Made by a program: the position numbers and the translations under genes. A DNA stretch of 64,000 bases from a virus, in the IMG/VR virus record IMGVR_UViG_3300050034_000081; one strand, 5' to 3'. Under the pieces are notes generated by a model. The model was not told the DNA's origin. It searched no databases and worked only from the letters and a program-made list of their open reading frames with translations. Below are positions 1,951-61,946 of this stretch, piece after piece. Position 1 is the first letter of the stretch, and every line of letters starts with the position of its first letter.

Positions 1951-2163
1951 ATGAAAGAACTTTTATTAGGAAATAACGGATACGGAGACGGATACGGATA
2001 CGGAGACGGAGACGGAGACGGATACGGATACGGATACGGAGACGGAGACGGAGACGGATACGGATACGGATACGGATACGGAGACGGATACGGATACGGA
2101 TACGGAGACGGAGACGGAGACGGATACGGATACGGATACGGATACGGAGACGGAGACGGATAA
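1951..2163 (+). CDS. Gly-Tyr/Gly-Asp repeat protein
   Basis: MKELLLGNN followed by 30 G[YD] dipeptides and a final G; stop TAA immediately after the repeat. Confidence 0.7.
   Translation: MKELLLGNNGYGDGYGYGDGDGDGYGYGYGDGDGDGYGYGYGYGDGYGYGYGDGDGDGYGYGYGYGDGDG
1978..2160 (+). repeat. Tandem 6-bp repeat, 30 units of GGATAC or GGAGAC
   Basis: Directly visible; the two unit types differ at one base. Confidence 0.97.
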
Positions 2164-2167
2164 AATT

Positions 2168-2199
2168 AAAAAATAAGCCCATAAGGGCTTATTTTTTTT
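2168..2199. terminator. Rho-independent terminator (bidirectional form)
   Basis: AAAAAATAAGCCC-ATAA-GGGCTTATTTTTT. Confidence 0.85.
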
Positions 2200-2204
2200 A
2201 AGTA

Positions 2205-2234
2205 TTGCAAATATTAAGATATTTTTGTTATAAT
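2205..2234 (+). promoter_or_regulatory. Class A phage promoter
   Basis: TTGCAA 2205-2210, 18 nt, TGtTATAAT; followed by 9-bp leader hairpin GAGATTACA-tcg-TGTAATCTC (2244-2264). Confidence 0.75.
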
Positions 2235-2289
2235 ATAAATGAAGAGATTACATCGTGTAATCTCAAAATTTATTTATTAAGGGATGGTT

Positions 2290-2412
2290 ATGAGGAAGCA
2301 ATGGTTACGAGAACAGCCCAAACTTATTCCAACCCTTAGACTTCGTATGGGTTGGATTTTGTTTGGAATGTTTATTGTATCTTGTATTGTAATTAAAATT
2401 TCAAGTCACTAA
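2290..2412 (+). CDS. Small membrane peptide, 40 aa (not in ORF track)
   Basis: MRKQWLREQPKLIPTLRLRMGWILFGMFIVSCIVIKISSH; one hydrophobic segment; sits between a promoter and a terminator. Confidence 0.55.
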   Translation: MRKQWLREQPKLIPTLRLRMGWILFGMFIVSCIVIKISSH

Positions 2413-2415
2413 GAG

Positions 2416-2440
2416 AAAAGACCCTTTCGGGTCTTTTTTT
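2416..2440. terminator. Bidirectional terminator between convergent units
   Basis: AAAAGACCC-TTTC-GGGTCTTTTTTT. Confidence 0.85.
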
Positions 2441-2443
2441 TAG

Positions 2444-2773
2444 CTATTCCTCACCTTTAGGTTTTCTAAATATTCCCCTACCAATAGCAGGTTCTACAGT
2501 CCCCAGAATCGAGCCATAAAGCCCACCCTCCACCAGACCTTTCTTGATGCCGTGACCTAGCTCATTCCTGAGCCCAGGATTACCCTTAATTTGCTTTAAA
2601 CCAGAAATGAGGCTACCACCCGTTCCTTTTAAGGTTTTAAATACATTTAAACCAGCATCAGCAGCAGCAAGTCCACCAGTTAATGCAATTCCTGAAGTCA
2701 AATAAGGATGACGTTGAGTAAAGCCAGCGATACCAGTTTTTTGTTGATCTAATGCTAATTTAATTAAACTCAT
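2444..2773 (-). CDS. MSLIKLA-leader basic Gly-rich protein (putative virion internal protein)
   Basis: Starts MSLIKLAL; Gly/Ala-rich helices (GIALTGGLAAADAG; GLVEGGLYGSILG); basic. Confidence 0.65.
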   Translation of the reverse strand: MSLIKLALDQQKTGIAGFTQRHPYLTSGIALTGGLAAADAGLNVFKTLKGTGGSLISGLKQIKGNPGLRNELGHGIKKGLVEGGLYGSILGTVEPAIGRGIFRKPKGEE

Positions 2774-2919
2774 TTTTTAGCCTTACTATCTTCTTCTTCC
2801 ATTTCTTTTACAGTTTTAAGAATTCCTTTCGAATTCTTTTTCATTTTTTCTAATTCTTCATGATCTTCTTTTAAATGAGAATCAGTAATTATAACTGAAC
2901 ATAATTTAATTAAACTCAT
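2770..2919 (-). CDS. MSLIKL-leader 49-aa protein (not in ORF track)
   Basis: MSLIKLCSVIITDSHLKEDHEELEKMKKNSKGILKTVKEMEEEDSKAKK; start and stop overlap both neighbours (ATGA coupling). Confidence 0.7.
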   Translation of the reverse strand: MSLIKLCSVIITDSHLKEDHEELEKMKKNSKGILKTVKEMEEEDSKAKK

Positions 2920-3635
2920 AATATAGGTTCCTGCGTTTTCTCAATAAGTTTATTATAATTATCTACTAAATATTTCTTATTACCTTTATGTAATTGTTTA
3001 ATAAATTCTTTTAAAAATTTACCATCACGAATAAAAGATAATTTTTCAATACCATCTTTACCATGTGTAAATTTAATTAATTGAGTTCTGTAATTACCTT
3101 TTTCATGAACTTTTGCTTCAATAGGGAATCTATGATAACCTCCAGGTTTAACTGGAATTTTTTCTTGTTTCATTGCTTCTGTAATTTTAGATCTAATCTT
3201 AGAATTAATATCTCTGGGATCTTCTAAATCTTTTTCCATTCTATTTATAATATTTTTTCTCATACCAGAGAGTCTATCTAATCCCCATCCTGAAGCACCG
3301 AAAAGAGCACCTGTTACAATCGCATTTTTAACTCTTTGACCTTTTGTGAATTTTTTATCAGTTATTTGATTTTTACTTTCTAATCCAGCCAGCCCAGCAC
3401 CTAAACCAACAGCACCTAAAGCAAATTTATTAGATTTGACAAAATTTTTGATATTTTCTAAATTAGAGGCTAATTTTATTAACCCTTTACTTCGTTTAAT
3501 TCCAGTTGCAATGGCTGTGCCTTCTGAACCACCATTTTTAAGTATGGCATTTGCAATTGAAATTGCTTTCTTCTGAATAGAAGGTTTAAAATATTTCATT
3601 GAAATTGGTACATTATCGGGATATGACCAGGGCAT
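2916..3635 (-). CDS. YdaT/DUF2188-like N-terminal domain fused to an IKLA-delimited basic domain
   Basis: MPWSYPDNVPISMKYF...KKAISIANAILKNG..EGTAIATGI resembles YdaT-like proteins; followed by GLIKLASN and glycine-zipper segments. Confidence 0.55.
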   Translation of the reverse strand: MPWSYPDNVPISMKYFKPSIQKKAISIANAILKNGGSEGTAIATGIKRSKGLIKLASNLENIKNFVKSNKFALGAVGLGAGLAGLESKNQITDKKFTKGQRVKNAIVTGALFGASGWGLDRLSGMRKNIINRMEKDLEDPRDINSKIRSKITEAMKQEKIPVKPGGYHRFPIEAKVHEKGNYRTQLIKFTHGKDGIEKLSFIRDGKFLKEFIKQLHKGNKKYLVDNYNKLIEKTQEPIL

Positions 3636-3639
3636 ACTA

Positions 3640-4383
3640 TTATCTCTTATGTAGTTTTAAAATATTAGTTCGTAAGAATTTCTCACCTTTAGCACCAACC
3701 ATTCCACCTAATATAGAAGCACCAATTCTCTTTCCTACAGTATTTTGATCATTTTCCCCTTTTATTAAAAATGGAGCAAGTGCCATGCCTGTTACTCTAC
3801 CAATAGCAGATTTTGATTTTGTGTGATATAAAGATTGTTTTAATGATGATTGATGTAATTTATCTATATCAGCAGCAGAAAGTAAATCTTTACCATAAGT
3901 TTTACCAGTTATATTTTTAATAATATCAGATTCACCAGTTAAATATCGCATCTTTTGTATTCTATTAATTGCATTTTTATTTTTTAATTTAGATAAATTA
4001 TTACTTTCTTCACCCAAAACGGCTAAAGTAGTATGTCTACCTCTTGGTACATTAAAAATACCTTGTCTTATATCTGCTTTTACAGGATTAGAAAACATTC
4101 TTTCGAAAGGACCTTTACCTTCATTATATTGATTAAGATATTTTCTTTCAGATAATTCATGCTTAATTCCTATTCTGTGTAAATCTTTTATATTTTGTTT
4201 GCTATCAAAAATTTTATGTAATGGAGAAGTGAATCTAAGCAATGGATTACGCACATCGCTAGCGATTATATTCCCACTATTAGACATAGTGGCATAACCT
4301 CCAACCGGCAATGCTGCAAGGTTATCTTTAAAACTATTAAATTTAGTCTGAGGAACAACTAAAGCTAATTTAATTAGACTCAT
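3640..4383 (-). CDS. MSLIKLA-leader basic protein
   Basis: Starts MSLIKLAL; C-terminal GASILGGMVGAKG glycine zipper. Confidence 0.65.
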   Translation of the reverse strand: MSLIKLALVVPQTKFNSFKDNLAALPVGGYATMSNSGNIIASDVRNPLLRFTSPLHKIFDSKQNIKDLHRIGIKHELSERKYLNQYNEGKGPFERMFSNPVKADIRQGIFNVPRGRHTTLAVLGEESNNLSKLKNKNAINRIQKMRYLTGESDIIKNITGKTYGKDLLSAADIDKLHQSSLKQSLYHTKSKSAIGRVTGMALAPFLIKGENDQNTVGKRIGASILGGMVGAKGEKFLRTNILKLHKR

Positions 4384-4384
4384 A

Positions 4385-4702
4385 TTAACTCACAATCTTA
4401 CTAATGGAAAATAAAACAATATCAGGTTCTTCAGTAGGAGAAATGACAACTTTAAATCCTTGATTTTTATAATACTTTGAAATACTTATTACCAACTTAA
4501 TAAAATTAGGAGAAAATCCATTATCAAAATTTGTATCTTGCATTGCAACTACAGCTTGATTATTTTTAATATGAGAATTAATAAAATCGATTAAAGATTG
4601 AATATCATTAAAATTTTCAACAATAATTTGCTGATCATTATTTATTGGAGATATGAAAGAAAAAGTTAATAATGAAAGAGTTAAAAACACAGGAATAAAC
4701 AT
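4385..4702 (-). CDS. Hypothetical protein with N-terminal hydrophobic or signal segment
   Basis: MFIPVFLTLSLLTFSFISP; GGAGA RBS; no lipobox Cys. Confidence 0.6.
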   Translation of the reverse strand: MFIPVFLTLSLLTFSFISPINNDQQIIVENFNDIQSLIDFINSHIKNNQAVVAMQDTNFDNGFSPNFIKLVISISKYYKNQGFKVVISPTEEPDIVLFSISKIVS

Positions 4703-4729
4703 CCTTATCTCCAGTGAAATTAATATTAG

Positions 4730-4888
4730 TTAAGTGATGGTCTCATTTTTCATACCCCAGTTCATAATAGCTTTATTCGGTTTTATTCTTAATTGAGGTT
4801 TTTGTCTTACCGTATCAGGAAGTAGACGAAGATCTTTATCACTCTCTACTAGTGGAGATGTTTCTAATGCTAGTTTAATTAGACCCAT
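4730..4888 (-). CDS. MGLIKLA-leader 52-aa protein (not in ORF track)
   Basis: MGLIKLALETSPLVESDKDLRLLPDTVRQKPQLRIKPNKAIMNWGMKNETIT. Confidence 0.7.
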   Translation of the reverse strand: MGLIKLALETSPLVESDKDLRLLPDTVRQKPQLRIKPNKAIMNWGMKNETIT

Positions 4889-5024
4889 TATAGTTCTCAA
4901 TAAATTTCTTCATTAACTTATTCATTTTGTCTTGCTCATGTTTTGGCATATTCTTAATTAAATCATTCATAGTTTCACAATATTCAAAGAAATCTTGTTT
5001 CTTTATAATATTTATGAGATTCAT
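4875..5024 (-). CDS. Hypothetical 49-aa protein (not in ORF track)
   Basis: MNLINIIKKQDFFEYCETMNDLIKNMPKHEQDKMNKLMKKFIENYNGSN; fills the gap with ATGA overlap to the upstream gene. Confidence 0.5.
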   Translation of the reverse strand: MNLINIIKKQDFFEYCETMNDLIKNMPKHEQDKMNKLMKKFIENYNGSN

Positions 5025-5710
5025 TTTCCATACCTATTATAAGTAATACCTTTATAAGTAAGTTTACTTAACTCACCATTAAAGTCTAAAAGAACTTTAC
5101 GAATACCTAAAATAGTAAAATTATTAATATGATTCATAAAATCAAATATTACTTTAGTTTTTATATTGTTATTATTATAAATATCTGTATCTTCACATAC
5201 ACTAATTATAAATGCATAAATAGCCTGAACTTTATCATCATACCATTCATTAAATCTATTTATTGCAATATCAGGTATATTATTTTCTTTAGCTCTAATC
5301 TCATACATTCTTACTATATTAGCTATACATTCCTGCATTCTTTTAGAATAGACCTCATTTGACATTAACTCAAGATTGTTATCTTCTATAATCTTTTTAA
5401 ATTCATCTTCTACTATCGTAAATTTAATAAGGAGAAAATCACGAAAAATAGCTTCTCGTAACCTTTCTCCTAATGTAAAATGTTTAATGTCGTAGTTTAT
5501 ATATTTTCTTAAATTAACAAACATTACGTGATTAGATAGATTATATTTTGTTTTAGTTTTATTAAATAATTTATTCCAAAGAGTTTTACCATTAATGGTC
5601 TTATGAATTAATATATATATAATTGTACTAAATAACAAAAAATGAAATCCAGCTACAAGTCCCCATTTTTTTATTATTTCACCTAATATTTGTATAAAAT
5701 CCATCATCAT
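5021..5710 (-). CDS. Membrane-anchored protein, possible lysis-module component
   Basis: N-terminal TM (WGLVAGFHFLLFSTIIYILIH) then a soluble helical domain. Confidence 0.55.
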   Translation of the reverse strand: MMMDFIQILGEIIKKWGLVAGFHFLLFSTIIYILIHKTINGKTLWNKLFNKTKTKYNLSNHVMFVNLRKYINYDIKHFTLGERLREAIFRDFLLIKFTIVEDEFKKIIEDNNLELMSNEVYSKRMQECIANIVRMYEIRAKENNIPDIAINRFNEWYDDKVQAIYAFIISVCEDTDIYNNNNIKTKVIFDFMNHINNFTILGIRKVLLDFNGELSKLTYKGITYNRYGK

Positions 5711-5725
5711 CTCTTTAAAATAACA

Positions 5726-6463
5726 TTATTTTTTAATGTAACGGTCATATAGCCAATACCCGCCACCACCAATACCTACACCAATAACAAATTTTATCTT
5801 ACCATTCATAGACTCAACTTTCAAGTCTTTCTCATATAAATTAATTTGTTTATCTTTATCTTTACCACTTTCTGTAAGTAAATTGTTTGAATTAGTAAGA
5901 CCATTATTTAAATCTTTTTCTGTAGCAACCAAATTCTGGTTAGCAGCATTTTCATTTTGAGTAGCCTTAAGATCTTCTTCGGTAGCGGCTAATTTATTTA
6001 TTAAAATTGGACCATTTACTTTCCACTGAATAGCGTCATTGGTTAAATTAATAGTAGTAGGTTGAATAATATTAAATCTAGTTCCATCAAATCCTACAGT
6101 ATTATCATTATAATTTTTAGCTATTGCATCTTTTACATCTTGAACTTCTTTAACTGGAGTAATTACTACAACTGATTGTGTATTATGAAGATGATTATCT
6201 GCAATAATAGTAACTTGATGAGCATTAGTTACACTAGTAGTTGCTTGATCAACTTTAGCCTGTAGAATCCGGTTCTTAGCAGTTTGATCTTTAATAGAAT
6301 TATTAAGTTCTGTTATTTTAGAATTTAATACTGCAATTTTAGTAGCATCTTTATTGGTAGATTTATTTAATATATAAGTATAAATACCGCTAGTAACTAA
6401 TGCAGTAATTAGAATTGTATATAAATAAGATTTAATGCTAGTTATTTTACTGAGGTCCATCAT
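5726..6463 (-). CDS. Coiled-coil protein with N- and C-terminal hydrophobic anchors (spanin-like candidate)
   Basis: YLYTILITALVTSGIYTYIL, long coiled coil, C-terminal FVIGVGIGGGGYWLY. Confidence 0.5.
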   Translation of the reverse strand: MMDLSKITSIKSYLYTILITALVTSGIYTYILNKSTNKDATKIAVLNSKITELNNSIKDQTAKNRILQAKVDQATTSVTNAHQVTIIADNHLHNTQSVVVITPVKEVQDVKDAIAKNYNDNTVGFDGTRFNIIQPTTINLTNDAIQWKVNGPILINKLAATEEDLKATQNENAANQNLVATEKDLNNGLTNSNNLLTESGKDKDKQINLYEKDLKVESMNGKIKFVIGVGIGGGGYWLYDRYIKK

Positions 6464-6830
6464 TATCTCCCTTTACTTGACTGGCAACAGCTTTAATTTC
6501 TTGCACCTTATTAAACACACCCTTTGCAGCACCAACGCCGATTGCCGTTCCAATTAAATAGAAAACTCCATCAGGTATTTTAAGATTTTTAACAACCGCA
6601 ACGCACACTAAACAAAAACCACCAATACCCCAAAGATAATCTAATAATCTTGTACTAGAATAAAATCCATCATTTCCTATAACAGAGCGATCAAATCTAT
6701 TAACTACACCCTGGAATAAAGAAATCACACAATCTCGTAATTGAGTAAGTGTAACTACTTTACGAATTAACATTTCAATAAATAAACTAGTAGATAAAAC
6801 AATAGTAATATATCCGACCAACTTCCACAT
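6447..6830 (-). CDS. Holin-like small multi-pass membrane protein
   Basis: 127 aa, 2-3 hydrophobic segments, charged C-terminal tail; AAGGAGA RBS. Confidence 0.5.
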   Translation of the reverse strand: MWKLVGYITIVLSTSLFIEMLIRKVVTLTQLRDCVISLFQGVVNRFDRSVIGNDGFYSSTRLLDYLWGIGGFCLVCVAVVKNLKIPDGVFYLIGTAIGVGAAKGVFNKVQEIKAVASQVKGDNDGPQ

Positions 6831-6863
6831 AAGAATCTCCTTCAGTTAATGATAACACAGAAA

Positions 6864-6893
6864 GCGCAAAAAGTCTTCCTTTTTTGTTATAAT
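6864..6893 (+). promoter_or_regulatory. Class A phage promoter
   Basis: GCGCAA 6864-6869, 18 nt, TGtTATAAT. Confidence 0.7.
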
Positions 6894-7046
6894 ATAAATG
6901 GAGATAATATTATATTATTTCTCTTGATAAGTAGTTATTGTTTATCAAAAAATACTTGATAAGCAATAGCAACTTATCGTCCTAATAACTATATAATCCT
7001 TACATATGGGAGGGTGTTTGAAATACAGTACACACAGAGGTAAAAT

Positions 7047-9120: not shown

Positions 9121-9452
9121 TGAAAAAGAGAACTGGTCATTGGGAAATTACCGCAATTGCAAATGGAGTTACAGTAAAGCTTTGTAATCTTGCTACATTT
9201 ATTCGAAAGTATAATTATGAGAAAACCTTTGTTTATAGTCAAATTGCAAAGGCACGTCGAGAAAAGGAAGATTCCACCATTATCGATGGATGGAAGATTA
9301 GTTGGTTCTATAATGATCCATTAGAATCTTTGGAAAAATTAGTAATTAATAAAAAGATTATTAATTGCCCAGTTATTAAACAAAAGAATAGAAGGGGTAG
9401 TTATAAAAATAGTATTTTGCCAGAATTAGTCGGAAGAGTATGTTACAACTAA
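9120..9452 (+). CDS. Hypothetical protein
   Basis: Coupled ORF, basic. Confidence 0.5.
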   Translation: MKKRTGHWEITAIANGVTVKLCNLATFIRKYNYEKTFVYSQIAKARREKEDSTIIDGWKISWFYNDPLESLEKLVINKKIINCPVIKQKNRRGSYKNSILPELVGRVCYN

Positions 9453-9634
9453 TTCTAGAACTTCTCCAATCTCACAAAGCCTTGACGGGTCGTGAGATTG
9501 GAGAAGTTATTGATTCGGAACATTGGCCAGATCATATTACTCAAGATTTGCAAGAACTTATGGATCAAGGTAGAATAGTCAGAAATCCTCTCGCTGTAAA
9601 ACAATGGGATTGTTATACATGGAGTTTGAAATGA
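9440..9634 (+). CDS. Small winged-helix-like protein
   Basis: ILELLQSHKALTGREIGEVI...ITQDLQELMDQGRIVR fits a wHTH pattern. Confidence 0.5.
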   Translation: MLQLILELLQSHKALTGREIGEVIDSEHWPDHITQDLQELMDQGRIVRNPLAVKQWDCYTWSLK

Positions 9635-9933
9635 TTTCAGATAAACGAATAAAAATTAATTATTTTAAAGTAAAGAAAATTTGTGAAGATATTAATCTAG
9701 CATTAGATAAAGGTTATGCAGTAATTAGTAATAATAAAATTGTAATAAATCCAAAATATAGATTTATATTTGAAGAACCAGATTGGAATGATTTGCAAAA
9801 TCATATATGGCTTAGCGAAATCACTTTTGCCGGTAATGATTATTTTGAACCAGATGAATCTTTGCGAGAAATTAAAAAGTATTGGTCTCAATGGTATGCA
9901 ATTCCACAAACTGATATAGTTAAATTTATTTAG
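9631..9933 (+). CDS. Hypothetical protein
   Basis: ATG 9631 overlaps the upstream stop (ATGA), GGAG RBS. Confidence 0.55.
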   Translation: MISDKRIKINYFKVKKICEDINLALDKGYAVISNNKIVINPKYRFIFEEPDWNDLQNHIWLSEITFAGNDYFEPDESLREIKKYWSQWYAIPQTDIVKFI

Positions 9934-9963
9934 TATACCTATACTGAATCTGGGGAATAAAAA

Positions 9964-10182
9964 ATGGAATCAATTACTATCGATAAAGTTAAAATTAATG
10001 CAAAAATTGGCGTTAATTTATACAATTGTATTTTAGATGCAATCGAACTTTCTGTTTCAGAAAAAAGAATTGTAGAATTAATTCATAATGATAGATTATA
10101 TAAGATTGACTATAATCAACTTGTCGATATAGTAGAAGATGCCTTCACCGTAGAGAAGGTAAAGAATTCTCATAAAGAATAG
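9964..10182 (+). CDS. Hypothetical protein
   Basis: GGGGA RBS. Confidence 0.6.
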   Translation: MESITIDKVKINAKIGVNLYNCILDAIELSVSEKRIVELIHNDRLYKIDYNQLVDIVEDAFTVEKVKNSHKE

Positions 10183-10357
10183 ACCAAGGGGTTCCTTCAT
10201 CAAAACTAGAGCATTGTTCCTTAATGGGACGGAGTAAGATGCAGGAATCCCTTTTTCTACAATCTTTACATGGCTTAGCATAATTTTTATCAATAGGTGG
10301 TAATTGTTCTCGAATAGGAAGGGAGTCTATTTCTTTTTTCTCTTTTTTTGAACCCAC
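10145..10357 (-). CDS. Cys-rich small protein (possible zinc binder)
   Basis: GTG start after AGGAG; CKDC-x5-C-x9-C; the plus strand here is otherwise unexplained. Confidence 0.45.
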   Translation of the reverse strand: MGSKKEKKEIDSLPIREQLPPIDKNYAKPCKDCRKRDSCILLRPIKEQCSSFDEGTPWSILYENSLPSLR

Positions 10358-10414
10358 GTTTCACACTCCTAACTTACATCATACCATGAAAATGAAAAAG
10401 AGAGGCATAATATA

Positions 10415-10759
10415 ATGACCGAAGATTTTAAACCATACATTAAAACTATTAAAATTAATGCCAAAACTGATTATAATAAAATGTTTTTAAATGTCACGCG
10501 AAATTTAAACAATAAAACTGCTAGAGAACATATTAATAAATTAAAACAAAATATGGAAGGAATTGAAAATTCAGCTTATCATTTTATTGATAATTCAACC
10601 ACTAAAGATCCAAAATATTCCAAAACTGCGTATACTGTAGTTGACGGAAATCATCGAACTACGGCAGAATATGAAAAAGCAATTGAAGCAAATATAGAGT
10701 TTATTATTAGACCTACCATTTATGATTGGGGTTATTTTGATTATCAAATAGTGCCGTAA
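10415..10759 (+). CDS. Hypothetical protein, C-terminus interrupted by IS insertion
   Basis: The last codons (QIVP*) derive from the IS left end that starts at 10745. Confidence 0.55.
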   Translation: MTEDFKPYIKTIKINAKTDYNKMFLNVTRNLNNKTAREHINKLKQNMEGIENSAYHFIDNSTTKDPKYSKTAYTVVDGNHRTTAEYEKAIEANIEFIIRPTIYDWGYFDYQIVP

Positions 10760-11973
10760 AACCCCTAGCTTTAGCTATGGGGATACAAGGCATAAATTGC
10801 CCACTATCATTTTCTCTCATAAGGGTGTTAAAATAAATCATGGTAAGGCACTACCATTAATGTCCTATTTGGACGGTGCCAAGAGAGGATATATTGTTAC
10901 TCACTTATAAGTTCAGAATTAAAGATGGTGGCTCTAAGAGTCACCATCTAAAAAGATGGGCTAATGCAGTAAATACAGTTTGGAATTACTGTAATGAAGC
11001 CTCGTACAATCAATTAAAGAAATATTCTAAATGGTTAAATTATTATGATTTAAATAATTTAACTAAAGGATCTAGTAAAGAATTAAATCTAAACTCAGCC
11101 ACTATACAACAGATTTGTAAAGAATATACCACAAAACGTTATCAATTTAAAAAACAAAAACTTAATTGGAGAACTTCAAAAGGATCAAGGAGATCTCTTG
11201 GATGGATTCCATGTACAAATCAAAACATTAAACTTAATAAAGATGCATTTTTTACATTTAGTGGTAAGACATTTAAATTTTGGAAAACAAGAGAGATTCC
11301 TAAAGATATTCGCACAATATCCTTAAATGAAGATTCTCGTGGACATTGGTATATTAACTTTGCGGTTGAAGTAGATTTTAAAAAACAAACTGGTAATTCT
11401 GAAATTGGTATAGATTTAGGATTATCTACAAATGCCACTCTTTCAGATGGTCGTAAATATAATAGAGAAAATATTACTAAATATTATGAAAAACAATTAG
11501 CAATGGCTCAACGAGCTAACAAGAAGCATCAAGTAACTAAAATATATGCTAAAATCAAAAATATTAGAAAAGATTGGAATCATAAAACTGCCAACAATAT
11601 ATTAAAAGATTCTAAATTGGTAATAGTTGGAGATGTATCTTCATCTAAGTTAACGAAAACTAAAATGGCTAAATCTGTCCTCGATGCTGGATGGTCCCAG
11701 CTACGCTCAATGCTTGCATATAAAGCTATTAAGCTTGGCATTGAGTTTAAAGAGGTTAACGAGAGTTGGACAAGTCGCACTTGTAATGTTTGTGGAGAAA
11801 TCGGCGAACATCAAGGTCTAAGCGGCTTATCCGTAAGGCAATGGGAATGTAAAAGTTGTCATACACTTCATGATCGTGACGTGAATGCAGCTATTAATAT
11901 TCTCAATGTCGGTCTTGGACATAAGACTCTAATTAAGGGAATCCCCCGGCTTTAGCCGTGGGGAGGATGTCAA
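10745..11973 (+). mobile_element. IS200/IS605-family element, tnpB only (IS1341-like, non-autonomous)
   Basis: Left end after TTAT: CAAATAGTGCCGT-AAAA-CCCCTAGCTTTAGCTATGGGG-ATACAAGG, near-identical in layout to IS608 LE as recalled; right end GAAT-CCCCCGGCTTTAGCCGTGGGG-AGGATG-TCAA (TCAA 11970-11973); no tnpA. Confidence 0.92.
10876..11955 (+). CDS. tnpB: TnpB RNA-guided endonuclease
   Basis: TYKFRIKD N-terminus, IGIDLG (RuvC-I), CNVC/CKSC zinc ribbon, HDRDVNAAINI (RuvC-III); likely start TTG 10894 after GAGAGGA. Confidence 0.93.
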   Translation: MPREDILLLTYKFRIKDGGSKSHHLKRWANAVNTVWNYCNEASYNQLKKYSKWLNYYDLNNLTKGSSKELNLNSATIQQICKEYTTKRYQFKKQKLNWRTSKGSRRSLGWIPCTNQNIKLNKDAFFTFSGKTFKFWKTREIPKDIRTISLNEDSRGHWYINFAVEVDFKKQTGNSEIGIDLGLSTNATLSDGRKYNRENITKYYEKQLAMAQRANKKHQVTKIYAKIKNIRKDWNHKTANNILKDSKLVIVGDVSSSKLTKTKMAKSVLDAGWSQLRSMLAYKAIKLGIEFKEVNESWTSRTCNVCGEIGEHQGLSGLSVRQWECKSCHTLHDRDVNAAINILNVGLGHKTLIKGIPRL

Positions 11974-12060
11974 TCTCTATGCAATCAATTATAAAAATAC
12001 ACGTAGGAGATTTACTGTATTTAATGAAGTTGGAGAAGAGATTGGTCCATCTTAAAAAAT

Positions 12061-12084
12061 AAAAAGCCCGAAAGGGCTTTTTTA
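12061..12084 (+). terminator. Rho-independent terminator
   Basis: AAAAAGCCC-GAAA-GGGCTTTTTT. Confidence 0.85.
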
Positions 12085-12091
12085 TTTAGCT

Positions 12092-12121
12092 ATGCAAAAA
12101 TAACTAATATTATGTTATAAT
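12092..12121 (+). promoter_or_regulatory. Class A phage promoter
   Basis: ATGCAA, 18 nt, TGtTATAAT, ATATATG. Confidence 0.75.
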
Positions 12122-12154
12122 ATATATGAAGATAATTATGTCTTTAAACTACTT

Positions 12155-12442
12155 ATGGAGAAAATCATGCTTTTAGGTCAAAAAAGTCTTGGATTTGTTT
12201 TCACCGCTAATGTAAAAAGAAAATCTGATCCACTTTATCTTTCAGAGAGTGGTTGGACTGAAGATATATTTGAAGCAATTAAATTTAAGACATTTCCTAT
12301 TATGATGGAATATCTTCGTAACAGTCCTGAAAATAAATTTAATGATTATAAATATAATGGATTTCAACAAATTATTACATCTTGGGGAACTAAAGAAATA
12401 TTAGTATCTGCAAATAATACACGAATGTTTCGTAAAAGTTAG
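12155..12442 (+). CDS. Hypothetical protein
   Basis: GGAG RBS; own promoter and terminator; GWTEDIFEAIKF motif. Confidence 0.6.
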   Translation: MEKIMLLGQKSLGFVFTANVKRKSDPLYLSESGWTEDIFEAIKFKTFPIMMEYLRNSPENKFNDYKYNGFQQIITSWGTKEILVSANNTRMFRKS

Positions 12443-12460
12443 CCCTTCGGGGCTTTTTTT
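12441..12460 (+). terminator. Rho-independent terminator
   Basis: AGCCC-TTCG-GGGCTTTTTTT. Confidence 0.85.
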
Positions 12461-12464
12461 AGCT

Positions 12465-12494
12465 ATGCAAATAAGTCCTATATTTTGTTATAAT
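12465..12494 (+). promoter_or_regulatory. Class A phage promoter
   Basis: ATGCAA, 18 nt, TGtTATAAT, ATATATG. Confidence 0.75.
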
Positions 12495-12532
12495 ATATAT
12501 GAAAACAATTATGTTTTCTATTGGGAGATGAA

Positions 12533-12694
12533 ATGACCTTAATGGAAAGTGATAGGCAGTTGTTTGTTTTTGCAACCAATCAATTAAATTTAGAAGCCGA
12601 AGAACTTCAAAGAGATTTGAATCTTTCAATTCAAAGCGCAATGCGTCTGGCGAGAGAACTACATCCTGGATGCATGATTGCTTTGCAAAATTAG
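12533..12694 (+). CDS. Hypothetical 53-aa protein, possible HTH (not in ORF track)
   Basis: MTLMESDRQLFVFATNQLNLEAEELQRDLNLSIQSAMRLARELHPGCMIALQN; GGGAG RBS. Confidence 0.6.
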   Translation: MTLMESDRQLFVFATNQLNLEAEELQRDLNLSIQSAMRLARELHPGCMIALQN

Positions 12695-12712
12695 ACATTT
12701 TTTTGTTATAAT
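12683..12712 (+). promoter_or_regulatory. Class A phage promoter driving the ncRNA candidate
   Basis: TTGCAA 12683-12688, 18 nt, TGtTATAAT 12707-12712. Confidence 0.75.
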
Positions 12713-12718
12713 ATATAT

Positions 12719-12950
12719 GGAACGGTTTAGAGGTTAACCGGGTCTTGTCGTAAGTACCTCAACAGCGAAAGCGACGGAGTAAACTGGGCTAGTATAGCTA
12801 AACCTCTATAGAGTCTTCTATGCAATCTCTATAACCTTCGGGGAAATAAGAGCATAGAAAAGCTAACGTTTAAGTTCGCAAAGGGGACTAACGATTAGTT
12901 GTAATAAGGGAACCACCGACCCGGCCTATATGGCGAAACGGTGCCTTTTT
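12719..12950 (+). ncRNA. Unclassified structured ncRNA candidate (~230 nt)
   Basis: No ORF; about 44% GC by hand count; bounded by a promoter and a U-tract; several 7-8 bp complementary pairs and GAAA/UUCG/GCAA loops (see findings). Confidence 0.65.
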
Positions 12951-12965
12951 TAGCTATGGAGAATA

Positions 12966-13154
12966 ATGAGAACTATAAGAGATGTTAAAGAAGAATTTTT
13001 ACAGAAAGTAATTACCATTATAGAACAAGTTAATTTAGGAAATAATAATGGAATTAATCAATATACTTGCGAACTTATTAAGCAAAAAATCATGAAAGAT
13101 CTAATGGATAAGAAATATGTAATCAAATATCGACAACCTGAAAGGAAGGATTGA
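12966..13154 (+). CDS. Hypothetical protein
   Basis: GGAG RBS. Confidence 0.55.
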   Translation: MRTIRDVKEEFLQKVITIIEQVNLGNNNGINQYTCELIKQKIMKDLMDKKYVIKYRQPERKD

Positions 13155-13423
13155 TAATGAAAGTATTAGGTTTTGGAGAAGGTTATCCAAAGAAGTATAT
13201 TTGTGAAGTTAACTCAAATGAACTTGATGCAGTTTTTGATTTTGATAATAGATGGAGTTGTGAAGATTTAAGAATTGGGGCCGAAGTAGATTTAGCAAAA
13301 GGTTATAAATTTAAACAAGATTTAGAATTATTATTTAAATCTTTTACTGAATCTCATGTAAAATTCATTAAAGCTAATGAGATAATGTACAACTTCGCTA
13401 AAGGAATGATCAAAAATGACTAA
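13151..13423 (+). CDS. Hypothetical protein
   Basis: GGAAGGA RBS; YICEVNSNEL...LRIGAEVDL pattern. Confidence 0.6.
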   Translation: MIMKVLGFGEGYPKKYICEVNSNELDAVFDFDNRWSCEDLRIGAEVDLAKGYKFKQDLELLFKSFTESHVKFIKANEIMYNFAKGMIKND

Positions 13424-55847: not shown

Positions 55848-57507
55848 GTCAGTCATTATTAATAACTTCGGACCAATTGAAAATATTCAGTTTGATTGTA
55901 AGAAATTTAACATGTTTCAGGGTAAATCTCATCAGGGCAAGAGCAGTATTCTACAGGCCATTCAGTGGGCTGTGATTGGTGGAAATGATGAGTTTCTTGT
56001 GAGAAATGGAACCGCTACCTGTGAGGTTATTTTGGTATCAAATAACCAGTCACGAATCGAGCGCCGTTTAACTCGTGGTGGATCCAGTAAGCTTTATTTG
56101 TATGGACCCGATGAGAAGCCGCTTAATAAACCTCAAGATGTTTTAAATAAAACTTATAATCCATTTCTATTTAGCCCAACAGATATAATTAATATGAAAC
56201 CTAAAGATTTAAACGAATTTATCTCTTCTACTATTAGTAAACGAGTGAAGTTAACTAGCGAAGAAATTAAATTATATGGATTGGAAAAAGTGGATTTAGC
56301 GGAAGATCCAGTTAATGCAATCCAAAAACATTACGATGGATTATATAAAGAACGTACTGGTGTTAATGCTATTGTAAAAGATTTTGATGCTAAAACTGCT
56401 GGGGCTCAAATTATTAAACAAGTAACCGAAGAAGAATTAAAGTTTATGGAAGATCTCGTTAATAATACCGAGGCAGATTTACGAAAAGCTAAAGATACAA
56501 ACATTCGAATTGATATTGGTAAGAAAAATATTGATATTAAAACTAAGACTGAAGAAAACGTAAAAATTATTAAGAAAGAATTAGAAGATGGTAAGAGTGT
56601 ATTAGAAAATCTTGATAATTCTATTAAAGAATTAGAAGAGATTAATAAACAAGTTTCTACGTTAGAGGCAGAACTGGCTAAGGATAGGAGTGAAGTTTCT
56701 AATATCAAGGCAACTTTAAGTAAACTCAGTAGTGGCGAAATTAATTGTCCCATCAGTGGATTGATTAAATGCACTACAGATATGAAGCCTTATAAACAAA
56801 AGCTTGAAAAGTCCGAAAAGACTTTAACTGATAATGGTAAAATTAAATTTACTAATGTTACTGAATTAAAAACTAAATCTGAAAAGCTTAAGCAAGATAT
56901 TGAAACTGCCAAAGACTTAAAGCGAAAACAACTTGAACTTGATAGAGCTGAAAGTATTTTGAAGGAACTTGAGATTTTCGAAGCAGATCCAATTGATATT
57001 ACTGAAACTGAAGCCAAGTTAGTTCAGATGAAAGATGAATTATATAAGGCTAGGTTAGCTAAAGATATTGGAACTATCACAGGAGTTGATGAAGCTAGAA
57101 AGCGTCAAGAGGAATTAAATCTTTCTCTTGAGAAACTGAATAAGTTATTGAAAGAGGTAATCCCTGGAAGGTTGACAATAGGATTAAAGGGAATATCATT
57201 ATCTAAGGATGGCCTATTCTTTCAGGGTTTGCCGATTCGTAGATTAGCAGACAGTATGAAGCTCCGAATCTGCACCGCTATTCTTAAAGATATGTTTACA
57301 AATTGCAATCTATTCACATTAGATCGCATGGAGATTATTGATAAGAATGAATTGGAGAAGTATATTACTTACTATGCAGCAGAAAATAATAGTATACAGT
57401 ACTTTGGTTCCTATGTTGGCGATATTGGACAATTAAAAATTCCAAACTTAAATATATTTACAATGAATAAATTTAAAGTGGAGAGTTGCAATGGAGAAGA
57501 CAGGTAG
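55840..57507 (+). CDS. SMC/Rad50-like coiled-coil ATPase
   Basis: INNFGPIE, GKSHQGKSS Walker A, long coiled coil, central CPISGLIKC, C-terminal FTLDRME. Confidence 0.8.
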   Translation: MIKSVIINNFGPIENIQFDCKKFNMFQGKSHQGKSSILQAIQWAVIGGNDEFLVRNGTATCEVILVSNNQSRIERRLTRGGSSKLYLYGPDEKPLNKPQDVLNKTYNPFLFSPTDIINMKPKDLNEFISSTISKRVKLTSEEIKLYGLEKVDLAEDPVNAIQKHYDGLYKERTGVNAIVKDFDAKTAGAQIIKQVTEEELKFMEDLVNNTEADLRKAKDTNIRIDIGKKNIDIKTKTEENVKIIKKELEDGKSVLENLDNSIKELEEINKQVSTLEAELAKDRSEVSNIKATLSKLSSGEINCPISGLIKCTTDMKPYKQKLEKSEKTLTDNGKIKFTNVTELKTKSEKLKQDIETAKDLKRKQLELDRAESILKELEIFEADPIDITETEAKLVQMKDELYKARLAKDIGTITGVDEARKRQEELNLSLEKLNKLLKEVIPGRLTIGLKGISLSKDGLFFQGLPIRRLADSMKLRICTAILKDMFTNCNLFTLDRMEIIDKNELEKYITYYAAENNSIQYFGSYVGDIGQLKIPNLNIFTMNKFKVESCNGEDR

Positions 57508-57658
57508 TTTTGAATACGTAGTATTCAAAAAAGAAGGAAAAGTTTGGATGCGCTCTCCCGGCGGATCCGTAATTATTTATGATAACCGTTTTAGTGACTG
57601 CCCTTTACTTTCTGAAGGGCAGTCATTTATTAAGGTTAAGGAGGATATTAGTGAGTGA
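57491..57658 (+). CDS. Hypothetical 55-aa protein (not in ORF track)
   Basis: MEKTGSFEYVVFKKEGKVWMRSPGGSVIIYDNRFSDCPLLSEGQSFIKVKEDISE; overlaps both neighbours. Confidence 0.45.
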   Translation: MEKTGSFEYVVFKKEGKVWMRSPGGSVIIYDNRFSDCPLLSEGQSFIKVKEDISE

Positions 57659-58370
57659 ATTAGATCCAACTATTATTCAGGAAATTGTAAAAGCTATTAA
57701 ACATCCATGGACTACTTTTCATAGGACAATTAACACTTTGGGTAGTGTTATTGTTATTGTCTGTGGTGTTTTTATTGGATATGAATCACAAATAAATAAT
57801 AAGACAGCAGAACGAAATACTAATCAATTAGAACTTTTAAATAGATATTATGTAATTCAAAATCAACAAACTATTTTATTGAAAATCATTGATCAAAATC
57901 TTCGAGATGATAAATCTAGTAGTCTAGGAAGCGCACCTCTTGAAGAGAAAGTTGCTACTGCTAAGATTATGTATGATTTGAGTATAACTAAACGAGTTCC
58001 ATTAAGTTTACTTTGTGGAATTGCACAGACAGAAAGTTATTGGAATACTCATGCGGTAAGTCTTATGGGTTGTGTTGGTCTTATTCAACCTAACCCTTTA
58101 TATGCTAGACCATATTTACGTGAAAATAGGATTGATTATAAAAAAGATATTTACTTTGATCCAGTTATAAATTGTACTGTAGGTATTGGAATGTTAAATG
58201 ATTTCCAAAATGAAAAAATTGAAAAAGGTTTAGCAACTCCAGATAATTGGAATTTTGCAACACATGATTATCTTTGGGGACCAGCTACTAGAGGAAATAT
58301 TTATGATATGAATTATAGTCTTAAAGTAATTACAGCTATGAAAGAATTCCAAAAGATGGGATTGATTTAA
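57651..58370 (+). CDS. Membrane-anchored lytic transglycosylase (SLT domain)
   Basis: GIAQTESYWN.HAVS.MGCVGLIQ SLT motif with catalytic Glu; N-terminal TM; GTG start after AAGGAGG. Confidence 0.8.
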   Translation: MSELDPTIIQEIVKAIKHPWTTFHRTINTLGSVIVIVCGVFIGYESQINNKTAERNTNQLELLNRYYVIQNQQTILLKIIDQNLRDDKSSSLGSAPLEEKVATAKIMYDLSITKRVPLSLLCGIAQTESYWNTHAVSLMGCVGLIQPNPLYARPYLRENRIDYKKDIYFDPVINCTVGIGMLNDFQNEKIEKGLATPDNWNFATHDYLWGPATRGNIYDMNYSLKVITAMKEFQKMGLI

Positions 58371-58564
58371 TGGAAGATGAATGGCCATTTAATATTAATT
58401 TTGAAGAATTAAAATATGATTTACATATTTATAGAATACAAAGAGAAATTTTTGAATTAATTCGAAATACTAATTTAGATCTAGAATCTTGGAAAATCCT
58501 CTATAATTTAATCAAGGATCAAATAGAACTAAGAAAGACTAATGATAGCAGCTTTAAAGACTAA
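58370..58564 (+). CDS. Hypothetical protein
   Basis: Coupled ORF. Confidence 0.5.
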   Translation: MEDEWPFNINFEELKYDLHIYRIQREIFELIRNTNLDLESWKILYNLIKDQIELRKTNDSSFKD

Positions 58565-60149
58565 GTTATTCAATTATCAATTACAACTTCGAGAAATTGG
58601 AATTCCAAGTTATATTTTAGATAATTATGATGAACTTCAGTTAGAGAGAATGTTAGTATTAGTTAAAACTAATCCATGGTGTTTATATAATATTGAAAAT
58701 GGATTTAGTTTAAAGTTATGTGAACAACTTGCTGAAAAATTTCATATAGATGATGAATTAGAAAAAGGAAAAGTTTATCTACAAGCCGCTCTCGATAAAA
58801 TCGCCTCTCAGGGACATACTTATGGAAAAGAATGGCAAATAAATTCATTTATTAAAAGCTGCAACTTCACAGACTATGTAAAACAAAAAGCAATCAATTC
58901 ATTACAAAATGAGGGACTGCTTTTTGTAAGCGATAAAGGCAATTACTTTCTTTCGAAATATTATAATTCTGAGAGAAGTTTTGCAGAGTTGTTAAAGAAC
59001 TTGGCAAAACAAAATGGTTATTTTACAGGATTTAGGAAAGACTATTCATTTTTATATGAAGAATTAAATGATGACCAAAAGAACGTCGTTGATGCACTTG
59101 AGTATAATAAACTTGTAATTTTAACTGGCTTACCGGGAACTGGTAAAACTACAACGGTTAGAGCAATAGTCGAATCTTTCGGCTCTGACAATGTAGTTTT
59201 ACTAGCTCCTACTGGTAAGGCGGCCTCTCGAATGTCTGAACTATGTGGAATACCCGCATCTACTCTACATAGTTTTTTCTTTAATCCTAATGGTTATGTT
59301 AATATTATTGAAAATAAGATTGTTATTATTGATGAAACATCGATGCTTGATGCTGAGATTGCAGGATGGATTTCTAATGGAATAGGTGAAGGATGTTGTC
59401 TTTTGCTTGTCGGAGATCCAAATCAGTTGCCTTCAATTGGTCCAGGTGAGGTTCTTAAGTGTGTTCTTGACTCAAGGATCGGATTGAGTTACCATTTAGA
59501 TATAATCATGAGGCAATCACCTGGATCGATCATTAAGTCAGCACATAATATTCACGCTGGTAATAATCTCGTCTACGGAAGTGACCATCAGGTATTATCT
59601 TATTTTCCTAAAAGATGGGATCTAGAAAGAATAGCATCTAAAATTTGCCAACACCCAGAATGGCGTGATGCCCAGTATCTTTCTGTGCTTAAGGAAAAAG
59701 GTTCGACTATCATAAATAAGATAGCTCAGAACATTTTAAATCCTAGTAAGATTGATGGATTTCATACCGGAGATCATGTTATTCATGTAAAAAATAATAA
59801 AGATTTGGGTATATCTAATGGAGAATGTGGTGTAATTATTAATAGTAATTTAAGTATAATTAGAGTTGAATATAAAGATAAAATCATAGAATACCCACAT
59901 TCTCTATTATGGCAATTAGAATTATCTTACTGTATTACGGTCCACAAGTCACAAGGCTCCGAATATAATAAAGTAGTTCTATTTGTGAATGAGAGTAGTA
60001 TTTTAAATAGAAATTTGATTTATACAGCTATCACAAGAGCTAAAAATAAAATTCTTATTATAGCTCCATCAGAAAACGTTCTACAAGAAGCGATACAAAA
60101 TAAACAGAAATCCAGACAGACTTCTTTAAGGTGGTTATTAGAGAAATGA
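58542..60149 (+). CDS. RecD2-like SF1B helicase
   Basis: LTGLPGTGKTT, LAPTGKAA, IIDETSM, LVGDPNQLPSIGPG, YCITVHKSQGSEY, YTAITRAK. Confidence 0.92.
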   Translation: MIAALKTKLFNYQLQLREIGIPSYILDNYDELQLERMLVLVKTNPWCLYNIENGFSLKLCEQLAEKFHIDDELEKGKVYLQAALDKIASQGHTYGKEWQINSFIKSCNFTDYVKQKAINSLQNEGLLFVSDKGNYFLSKYYNSERSFAELLKNLAKQNGYFTGFRKDYSFLYEELNDDQKNVVDALEYNKLVILTGLPGTGKTTTVRAIVESFGSDNVVLLAPTGKAASRMSELCGIPASTLHSFFFNPNGYVNIIENKIVIIDETSMLDAEIAGWISNGIGEGCCLLLVGDPNQLPSIGPGEVLKCVLDSRIGLSYHLDIIMRQSPGSIIKSAHNIHAGNNLVYGSDHQVLSYFPKRWDLERIASKICQHPEWRDAQYLSVLKEKGSTIINKIAQNILNPSKIDGFHTGDHVIHVKNNKDLGISNGECGVIINSNLSIIRVEYKDKIIEYPHSLLWQLELSYCITVHKSQGSEYNKVVLFVNESSILNRNLIYTAITRAKNKILIIAPSENVLQEAIQNKQKSRQTSLRWLLEK

Positions 60150-61045
60150 GTAGAAAATTAACTTTATTAGATTGTCAAAATATAGCTGCTTCTAATGGTG
60201 GATTTTGTAGATCTACCGAATATAAGGATGCTAATAGTAAAATGTTATGGGAATGTAAATTAGGACATCAATGGGAGACAACTTTACATTCTTTAAGAAC
60301 TATGCATACATGGTGTGATAAATGCGCTCATACGAAACTTGGATTAAGCAAGAGAACTAATATTGAAATATGTCAAAATTATGCAATAGGTAAAAGAGGT
60401 AAGTTGTTATCTACAGAATATAAAGATAATAGAACTAAGATGTTATGGGAATGTGAATTTTTACATCAATGGTGGGCTGCTTGGCATGATATTAATGGAC
60501 AAAATCAATGGTGTCCGTTATGCCAACCTACAGCACCAGGTAGTTTAGGAGAATGTCAAGAATATGTAAAAATGGAGCATGAAGGATTTTGTTTATCTAC
60601 TGAATATATAAATTCTCAAACTAAAATGTTATGGCAATGTAAATTTAAACATCAATGGATGGCTACTTTTGGTAGTATTAAAAATAGTAAAACTTGGTGC
60701 CCTAAATGTTCAGCATTTAAAACAGAACGTTTATGTAGAGAAATATTAGAACAAAAATTAGGGTATGAATTTAAAAAAACTAAATTCCATTATTATGGAC
60801 AACAATTAGAATTTGATGGTTTAAACGATGAGCATAGTATAGCTTTTGAGTTTCACGGATATCAACATTATATTTATCCTAATACTTTTTATAAAACTAT
60901 AGAAGCCTTTAATGCTCAGTTAAAACGCGATGATCTTAAGGAACAATATTGTGCTGAAAGAGATATTAGATTGTTAATAATTCCTTATACTGAATATAAA
61001 AATCTAGAAAGTTATATAAATCAACTAATCATAGAAGGAGAATAG
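60146..61045 (+). CDS. Repeat-containing PD-(D/E)XK endonuclease (probable homing endonuclease)
   Basis: Repeats of C....GG.C.STEY....KMLW.C...HQW......WC..C; C-terminal LEFDG..D...AFEFHGYQHY. Confidence 0.75.
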   Translation: MSRKLTLLDCQNIAASNGGFCRSTEYKDANSKMLWECKLGHQWETTLHSLRTMHTWCDKCAHTKLGLSKRTNIEICQNYAIGKRGKLLSTEYKDNRTKMLWECEFLHQWWAAWHDINGQNQWCPLCQPTAPGSLGECQEYVKMEHEGFCLSTEYINSQTKMLWQCKFKHQWMATFGSIKNSKTWCPKCSAFKTERLCREILEQKLGYEFKKTKFHYYGQQLEFDGLNDEHSIAFEFHGYQHYIYPNTFYKTIEAFNAQLKRDDLKEQYCAERDIRLLIIPYTEYKNLESYINQLIIEGE

Positions 61046-61046
61046 A

Positions 61047-61946
61047 TTGACTCTTAACATATATCAACATACCATCCAAGCTCGTTTGGCTATAGGCGAG
61101 AGACATGCAGAGAAAAACTACCCAATCAAATTAGATCATTTTATCGCTACCCATCCATATGATCCCAAAACTAAAACTGCTCCAAAACACAAGAAGCTTG
61201 GAGAGTACTTTAAGGAAAAGTATAAAACTTCTGAACCTAAATTCGTCGATGTAGTTTTGATCGATCACCATCCTGATGAATGCCTGTATAGCGACTATAT
61301 GAACTTTCCAGGAACTACTTGCAACTGTAAGGGTAATGGCGAAACTGCGATAAGAACAGACTCTGAAGGTAATAAAAAAGAGATAGAATGTAACTATAAA
61401 ACTTGTGAGTTTCGGTTAACTAAAACAAATAAGGGAATTGTTAATGCTTGTCGCCCCACTGGGATTTTATCGTTTATCATCCCTGAAGCCCCTATGTCTG
61501 GAGGTGTGATTAAGTTCACCACTCATTCCATTATGACCATAGGCAAAATCAACGATGCATTGCAAAACATTTATGCAATTCGCAAAACTCTTTTTGGTCT
61601 AAAGGTAAGATTGCATGTTGTAATGGTTCAGGTAAGTGTAGGTGGTAAGAATACAAATGTTCCAACTGTAGAACTTGAGATTCCATTCAGTTATAATGAG
61701 ATCGCAGAAGGTGCTGGAACTACTATTGGAACTTTAATGGAAGCTCAGGCTAAGCATCTTGCAATGGGTGCGCTTCCTAATAAGGAGGTTATGAAAGAAC
61801 TTTCTACGGCTGCTGAAAAGGAAGCTTATGATGGTTCTAATGATGAAATTCCACCTACTACAAAGAGTGAAAAGCCAATCGATGTTGAAATTGTAGATGA
61901 ACCTAAAGATGCAATTACCGAAGATTCTGATGAATTTTCTTTTTAA
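61047..61946 (+). CDS. Recombination protein, mycobacteriophage Gp3/RDF-like family
   Basis: ARLAIGE...PIKLDHF...CKGNGETA...CRPTGILSF...FTTHS motifs recalled for this family; acidic tail ending EFSF. Confidence 0.55.
   Translation: MTLNIYQHTIQARLAIGERHAEKNYPIKLDHFIATHPYDPKTKTAPKHKKLGEYFKEKYKTSEPKFVDVVLIDHHPDECLYSDYMNFPGTTCNCKGNGETAIRTDSEGNKKEIECNYKTCEFRLTKTNKGIVNACRPTGILSFIIPEAPMSGGVIKFTTHSIMTIGKINDALQNIYAIRKTLFGLKVRLHVVMVQVSVGGKNTNVPTVELEIPFSYNEIAEGAGTTIGTLMEAQAKHLAMGALPNKEVMKELSTAAEKEAYDGSNDEIPPTTKSEKPIDVEIVDEPKDAITEDSDEFSF

Follow-up and report, generated by a model that had tools for sequence, protein, structure and literature searches.

We analysed a 64,000-nucleotide stretch of viral DNA, hereafter the window (IMG/VR record IMGVR_UViG_3300050034_000081), and an insertion sequence (IS) within it whose only gene, tnpB, encodes a predicted RNA-guided nuclease with a rearranged RuvC catalytic site. 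Genes for a DNA polymerase, helicases, a large terminase and a prohead protease are encoded in the window, and by its gene content it is phage DNA, part of a large uncultured phage genome from peat. The nearest virus record, designated G001, is 97-98% identical to window positions 9415-10744 and 11974-13172; between these blocks G001 has 536 bp, belonging to an intact 315-codon gene, and the window has 1229 bp. The element was delimited as 10745-11973 because the similarity to G001 ends at 10744 and restarts at 11974, and a second copy elsewhere covers exactly IS positions 1-1229. Since the copy carries tnpB only, it represents a non-autonomous member of the IS200/IS605 family, of which autonomous relatives exist. 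The principal features of the locus are as follows.

10745-11973, + strand: non-autonomous IS200/IS605-family (IS608-like) element of 1229 bp, with tnpB only (collinearity break with G001; second copy)
10741-10744, + strand: TTAT, target of the transposase TnpA, left cleavage site (CL) and predicted target-adjacent motif (TAM) of TnpB (precedes the element at both insertion sites)
10894-11955, + strand: tnpB (NCBIfam guided_TnpB, Pfam domains, AlphaFold2 fold)
11774-11973, + strand: predicted scaffold of the OMEGA RNA (ωRNA), also called right-end element RNA (reRNA), overlapping the 3' end of tnpB and the right end; its 5' end is provisional (fold, covariation)

TnpB and its rearranged RuvC site

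The initial annotation had given the open reading frame (ORF) as 10876-11955 (+). This frame is indeed present, with a GTG start at 10876 and 359 amino acids; the start codon, in contrast, is probably TTG at 10894, preceded by AGAGAGGA and yielding a protein of 353 amino acids that begins MLLTYKF, because an 81%-identical relative and 353-amino-acid gene calls begin likewise. Sequence and predicted fold identified the product as TnpB. It scored 217.4 bits against NCBIfam guided_TnpB (NF040570; curated cut-off, 100), and both Pfam OrfB_IS605 (PF01385) and Cas12f1-like_TNB (PF07282) exceeded their cut-offs. An AlphaFold2 model built from 27 homologues reached a predicted local distance difference test (pLDDT) value of 83, and its top fold matches were ISDra2 TnpB (8H1J), ISFba1 TnpB (8IAZ) and Fanzor2 (9B0L). 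The residues of the predicted active site, all on the + strand, are listed below.

11413-11415, + strand: RuvC-I Asp180 in the motif DLG (EIGIDLG; invariant in a 27-sequence alignment)
11629-11631, + strand: Gly252 at the canonical RuvC-II Glu position (VIVGDVS; HMMER alignments)
11761-11763, + strand: alternative catalytic Glu296, Ealt (VNESWTS; invariant, fits the published definition)
11782-11859, + strand: C4 zinc finger, Cys303, Cys306, Cys325 and Cys328 (invariant cysteines, Pfam TNB domain)
11878-11880, + strand: RuvC-III Asp335 in DRDVN (HDRDVN; opposite D361 of ISDra2 TnpB, nearly invariant)

This arrangement agreed with the initial annotation, which had described intact RuvC-I (IGID) and RuvC-III (DRDVN) motifs, the loss of the RuvC-II Glu in VIVGDVS and a Glu 44 residues downstream in VNESWTS. 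D180 and D335 are both present. In HMMER alignments, G252 stands opposite the RuvC-II Glu of ISDra2 TnpB (...GTEHL...) and of 9YYG (...VEDL...), a designed nuclease that served as an aligned TnpB relative, and in the same alignments the Glu of VNE lies opposite Pro or Arg, which are non-acidic. E296 is exactly 44 residues after G252 and is spaced from the zinc finger as E296-SWTSRT-C303. In the AlphaFold2 model, E296 directly follows strand 290-294, the next strand after the one ending at G252, in agreement with the published description of the clade. We infer nuclease activity and a catalytic role of E296 from these sequence features, the predicted catalytic triad being D180, E296 and D335.

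The rearranged site was highly conserved among relatives. G252, E296 and D180 were invariant in the 27-sequence alignment, which extends down to 50% identity. Among the 120 closest database proteins, a Glu was found seven positions before the first zinc-finger Cys in 111 of 111 and a Gly at the canonical position in 100 of 101, and RuvC-I read DLG in 114 of the 120. When the search was widened to the 150 best representatives of a 50% clustering, the Ealt Glu was kept in 103 of the 105 having a recognisable zinc finger, and the canonical position was Gly in 81 of about 90. In a FastTree phylogeny of 86 proteins, whose rows were drawn from database relatives only, 76/76 Ealt rows grouped as a single clade (support 100, branch 0.83), and the IS608-like TnpB and the canonical-Glu TnpBs from viral contigs fell outside it. 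At 50% clustering the clade comprised 253 representatives with E ≤ 1e-30, rising to 5391 with E ≤ 1e-10. Genomes of Bacteroidota, Burkholderiales and Bdellovibrionota carry its members, frequently in multiple copies, as do more than 60 IMG/VR viral contigs, and the nearest relatives (60-81% identity) are on phage-like contigs. In addition, a Y1 TnpA gene lies directly upstream of the Ealt-type tnpB in about 28 of the fetched family loci.

A rearranged RuvC site of this kind is already known from a large published clade that has been surveyed and partly bench-tested. By published definition, Ealt denotes a Glu that precedes the zinc-finger CxxC by six residues, and the Ealt proteins fall into two clades, DΦG and DPG, with Fanzors and cyanobacterial IS607 pro-Fanzors in the latter (Yoon et al. 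2023, PMC10711439). The prokaryotic Ealt group was named TnpB2; one member, TvTnpB, from an IS605 element with the TAM NTGAC, cut DNA without collateral activity, and the E467A mutant of the Fanzor2 ApmFz2 was inactive (Jiang et al. 2023, PMC10530073). Altae-Tran et al. (2023, PMC10691335) described major RuvC-II rearranged (RIIr) clades with a Glu-to-Gly replacement, of which RIIr-5 is the largest; these clades are as mobile as ordinary TnpBs, and some branches are virus-enriched. For Fanzor2, the triad D324/E467/D501 was determined by cryo-electron microscopy. Because TvTnpB cuts DNA, ApmFz2 E467A is dead and this triad has been visualized, a triad of the same type would, by analogy, be credible in the window TnpB.

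Judged by its motifs, the window TnpB belongs to the DΦG/Ealt group (TnpB2/RIIr) and not to the Fanzor ancestor line, because E296 precedes C303 by the spacing E296-x6-C303 and RuvC-I reads DLG. Its placement, made by motif definitions and the tree of database relatives, leaves the exact label between RIIr-5 and another RIIr branch. TnpB2/RIIr proteins such as Thermoplasma volcanium TvTnpB share with it the Gly in place of the canonical Glu, the alternative Glu about 45 residues downstream and six before the zinc finger, a DΦG RuvC-I, a length of 350-400 amino acids and the IS200/IS605 context, with Y1 TnpA present in the relatives of the window TnpB. Unlike TvTnpB, the window copy resides in a phage, lacks tnpA and has a predicted TAM of TTAT rather than NTGAC. 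The best solved match in both sequence and fold is ISDra2 TnpB (PDB 8EXA, 8H1J), with which it shares the DRDxN RuvC-III motif, the zinc finger and an ωRNA overlapping the 3' end of the gene and the right end; ISDra2 TnpB has the canonical Glu278, where the window TnpB has Gly.

The description 'Fanzor-like' in the initial annotation thus held for the position of the Glu and failed for the lineage. The Fanzor2 of a mimivirus (ApmFz2, PDB 9B0L) has its alternative Glu at the same position and a fold TM-score of 0.67. However, Fanzors and pro-Fanzors have a DPG RuvC-I, IS607 serine recombinases and N-terminal extensions, none of which is found for the window TnpB, and are carried by eukaryotes, giant viruses or cyanobacteria, unlike it. 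RuvC-I reads D180-L181-G182 in the window, and the element has IS608-type hairpin ends and relatives with Y1 TnpA instead of a link to IS607 recombinases or eukaryotic transposons. The DLG motif and the association with Y1 TnpA led us to reject close kinship with Fanzors.

IS608-type ends and the predicted guide RNA

The left end (LE) and right end (RE) of the element, its predicted RNA and the adjoining flank contain the following features.

10758-10761, + strand: left guide (GL) AAAA, directly 5' of the LE hairpin (placed like AAAG of the Pt11509_1 IS608-like element)
10762-10786, + strand: LE imperfect palindrome with a bulged T, then ATAC (hairpin 10762-10782)
11939-11973, + strand: RE, consisting of the right guide (GR) GAAT at 11939-11942, a hairpin at 11943-11963 and a 10-nt tail ending with TCAA at 11970-11973
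11911-11928, + strand: penultimate ωRNA stem-loop (compensatory changes in 6/7 pairs; 98% of cells paired)
11974-11989, + strand: current ωRNA guide, TCTCTATGCAATCAAT..., from the right flank (copies at other sites diverge exactly here)

Both ends were intact, as the initial annotation had claimed, and showed the IS608 architecture. The LE hairpin reads CCCCTAGC-TTTA-GCTA(T)GGGG and is followed by ATAC. The LE and RE hairpins are direct copies, 80% alike and with a bulged T in each, and there are no inverted terminal repeats; in the 64 kb, the hairpin motif occurs only at 10762-10782 and 11943-11963, against a chance expectation of 0. The stop codon of tnpB, TAG, sits within the loop of the RE hairpin, and the conserved C-terminus of TnpB, ...GIPRL, is the translation of GR and the 5' arm of that hairpin. 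The RE pattern GGAATC...GGGGAGGATGTCAA was kept across the clade. Directly past the element, TCTCTATGCAATC begins at 11974.

According to the pairing rule of IS608 (C1-G2, C2-G1, C4-G4, with C3 an unpaired A; He et al. 2011), AAAA would specify TTAT and GAAT would specify TCAA, and both were as observed. Insertion occurred 3' of TTAT at two independent sites with no target duplication. Hence the prediction in the initial annotation that the LE guide AAAA selects the TTAT at 10741-10744 agreed with the rule and with both sites; similarly, its placement of the RNA guide in the flank from 11974 matched the element boundary, since the copies diverge exactly past TCAA.

Comparison with IS608 of Helicobacter pylori and the IS608-like element of Helicobacter phage Pt11509_1 (PQ159904.1) revealed an identical LE hairpin followed by ATAC, and over a 39-nt stretch the LE of the window element shared 97% identity with that of the IS608-like element. 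Guide tetranucleotides 5' of both hairpins, insertion 3' of TTAN, the GR sequence GAAT and a 10-nt RE tail ending in TCAA are likewise common to IS608 and the window element. The two differ in the left cleavage site and target (TTAT in the window element, TTAC in IS608), in GL (AAAA versus AAAG) and in the LE linker including the guide (17 nt versus 19 nt). Furthermore, the window element lacks tnpA, unlike IS608, and the TnpB of the IS608-like element carries the canonical Glu (IFIEDL), with only 26% identity to the window TnpB. A search for LEs in distant relatives by similarity to their own REs mostly failed, and conservation of the TAM across the clade was not established by it.

A solitary RE-like unit was observed in Mycobacterium phage SG4 (NC_023699.1, 2501-2543 of the retrieved locus L008), and also in Enby and Lorde. 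It consists of GAAT, a hairpin identical to the window RE hairpin and then AGGAGGTCAA; in these cluster-F mycobacteriophages it is located between gp43 and the repressor gene gp44, and neither tnpB nor an LE is close to it. The unit may be a relic, or an RE/ωRNA end that was captured.

For the 200 nt at the 3' end of the element, the predicted fold had -73.4 kcal/mol and was far better than shuffles (z = -5.5). Covariation was analysed in an alignment of 21 family loci, all ending at RE. The penultimate stem (11911-11917 with 11922-11928) and the RE hairpin together contained compensatory changes in 12 pairs, with 96% of cells paired, and double-change cells numbered 75, compared with 21±3 in shuffles and at most 25 with slid partners. 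An Rfam scan of 10000-13000 yielded no family, and the ωRNA is without an Rfam model. The guide sequence is unique within the window, and expression of an ωRNA carrying it is predicted from the features above. A strong hairpin followed by a T-run, resembling an intrinsic terminator and readable on both strands, was observed at 12056-12087, 83 nt after RE and just past the remnant of a disrupted phage gene. Read-through ωRNA precursors could have their 3' limit at this hairpin.

Two insertion sites and an empty allele

At the first site, the element interrupts a phage gene that is intact in G001, leaving two parts.

10415-10759, + strand: truncated 5' part (114 codons) of the phage gene, which has 315 codons in G001 (last 5 codons and stop from LE)
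11974-12055, + strand: 3' remnant of the same disrupted gene (536 bp missing between the parts)

The gene matched nothing in Pfam or PHROGs, and structural comparison gave weak leads only, to ParB_N, GmrSD_N or DUF6551-like folds. The first 15 nt of LE (10745-10759) supply five codons in one frame, QIVP plus stop, and this IS-derived tail ends both the truncated gene of the window and a Tad2-like gene (PF11195, anti-Thoeris; 2178-2384 of locus L173) at the second insertion site.

That second site was found through members of the 90% protein cluster of the window TnpB, which are on dozens of metagenome contigs of up to 159 kb at this other site, between the Tad2-like gene and a 170-amino-acid gene that is followed by an RNase H gene. 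The copy there matches the window copy with 99.76% identity, the match extending exactly from position 1 to 1229, and the three differences are A31T, K326E and one silent change. With slashes marking the junctions, the site reads ...gtccTTAT/IS/GCTTAAGTCC.... The 21 kb around it are 95-98% identical to window 56427-64000; therefore, these contigs represent the same phage lineage as the window. As seen in the related contigs, site 2 lies about 2.8 kb past the right end of the window and about 56 kb from site 1. Two independent TTAT sites with sharp common boundaries show recent transposition of the TnpA type, and by this comparison of copies the element has moved recently in this phage lineage. 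Since both insertion sites are TTAT, TTAT is also the expected TAM, and the TAM of this TnpB is probably TTAT. All fetched contigs had an occupied site 2, and a search for an empty allele of this site found none.

One contig, Ga0302280_1015277 (3951 bp, reverse complement), contains three element pieces: an RE followed by a third right flank (TCAA/TAATAAAGGAC...), a 291-bp 3' remnant at site 2 (IS 939-1229), where LE and the Tad2-like gene are deleted, and IS 735-865 at the contig end. Either the element has really decayed and been rearranged, or the assembly is chimeric across repeats.

An empty allele of site 1 is provided by G001, the only match when metagenome and viral contigs were scanned for the right flank of site 1. 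It reads ...AAATTTAT/TCTCTATGCAATCAAT..., that is, TTAT and then at least 30 nt that match the window's guide region exactly. The occupied allele should be spared, because TCAA stands there instead of TTAT. The arrangement in G001 is the one expected if TnpB cuts the empty allele.

Relative to G001, the 536-bp deletion starts after GATTAT/AAGTT and ends at ATTTAT/TCTCT, with TTAT at both junctions. Since TTAT occurs at about 2% of positions in the disrupted gene, a second TTAT is unlikely to coincide with the junction by chance. The flanks are nearly identical to G001 (330/330 and 86/87 positions); therefore, the insertion/deletion event was recent. The TTAT-bounded junctions speak against a random deletion and suggest that TnpA catalysed an adjacent deletion or that two nearby insertions recombined. 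Possibly, TnpA joined RE to a nearby TTAT target and thereby deleted the adjacent DNA; alternatively, copies inserted at both TTAT sites may have recombined, or insertion at the second TTAT may have been followed by a deletion through the 4-nt TTAT microhomology.

A second indel polymorphism of this phage lineage was observed away from the element: when window 58470-64000 was compared with 1993-7040 of locus L197, about 480 bp (window 60383-60865) were missing from the relative, and this interval holds a 304-amino-acid ORF (60131-61045) in the window and a 138-amino-acid gene in the relative.

Proposed mechanism and alternative explanations

By summarizing the above results, we propose, with a probability of roughly 80%, that the locus is an IS608-like, tnpB-only element whose Ealt-type TnpB performs ωRNA-guided cutting of empty TTAT sites and which is mobilised in trans. 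A transcript across the 3' end of tnpB and RE would give the ωRNA scaffold, with 16-20 nt of the flank from 11974 as the guide. The RNA-loaded TnpB would then cut DNA containing TTAT and a match to the guide, i.e. the empty site, and the occupied site would escape with TCAA replacing TTAT. A Y1 TnpA supplied in trans, by the host or a co-resident element, would move the element as single-stranded DNA and insert it 3' of TTAT; the RE-LE circle junction of the excised element would read ...GTCAA/CAAATAGTG....

Several observations weigh against this proposal. No Y1 TnpA, the mobilising enzyme, was found in the element, the window or G001, and a scan of LE gave no convincing promoter. The predicted closeness of E296 to D180 and D335 comes from secondary-structure placement and published clade models. 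Moreover, covariation in the RE hairpin could reflect DNA recognition by TnpA and not RNA structure; the penultimate stem has no such role in TnpA recognition and therefore speaks specifically for RNA.

The element might instead be a passive passenger, with tnpB and its ωRNA idle in the phage and the two sites produced by rare TnpA hops only. This fits the absence of TnpA in cis and the three differences between the copies, two of them non-synonymous, with no measurable selection signal, but it accords poorly with a full-length ORF retaining all catalytic and zinc-finger residues, with the wide occurrence of clade members in phage contigs and with the uniform occupancy of site 2, and we consider it unlikely. 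It is rather improbable that TnpB is catalytically dead, or an RNA-guided binder or regulator of the TldR type, with the loss of the canonical Glu being a real inactivation: that Glu is certainly absent, and inactive exapted TnpBs are known, yet D180, E296 and D335 are conserved clade-wide, the same type of triad is active in TvTnpB and Fanzor2, and the ends are intact and have moved recently, unlike those of immobilised exapted TnpBs. That the compensating acid is Asp253 (the GD of VIVGDVS) or another residue in place of Glu296 is highly improbable: an Asp does directly follow the Gly in the window TnpB, but Asp253 was rejected because Asn is common after the Gly, in about one-third of relatives (69 Asp and 31 Asn among the 120 closest proteins, i.e. 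Asn in 31/100 close homologues; 41 and 34 among the 150 representatives, i.e. Asn in 34/81), Glu296 is essentially invariant, and published structures and mutants put the catalytic Glu six residues before CxxC.

The rearranged RuvC site alone adds one more member to a described clade, and the added value lies in the population picture. The locus also supplies a compact (about 353 amino acids) predicted nuclease of the Ealt type with a short predicted TAM. More tentatively, RNA-guided homing or allele exclusion between co-infecting phages may be a role of the element in this phage lineage, a reading that we regard as possible though doubtful. If so, the G001 allele would be cut and repaired from the IS-bearing genome, and the element and the 536-bp deletion would both be copied. 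Reviews have proposed that TnpB drives the spread of transposons between co-infecting phages (PMC13565253), and we found no natural example of this. The window allele, with IS and deletion, and G001, with an intact gene, TTAT and the guide match, form a natural donor/recipient pair. With two TTAT sites, an empty target allele and a TTAT-bounded deletion, the locus is a clean natural system that could serve to test TnpB-driven transposon spread between co-infecting phages.

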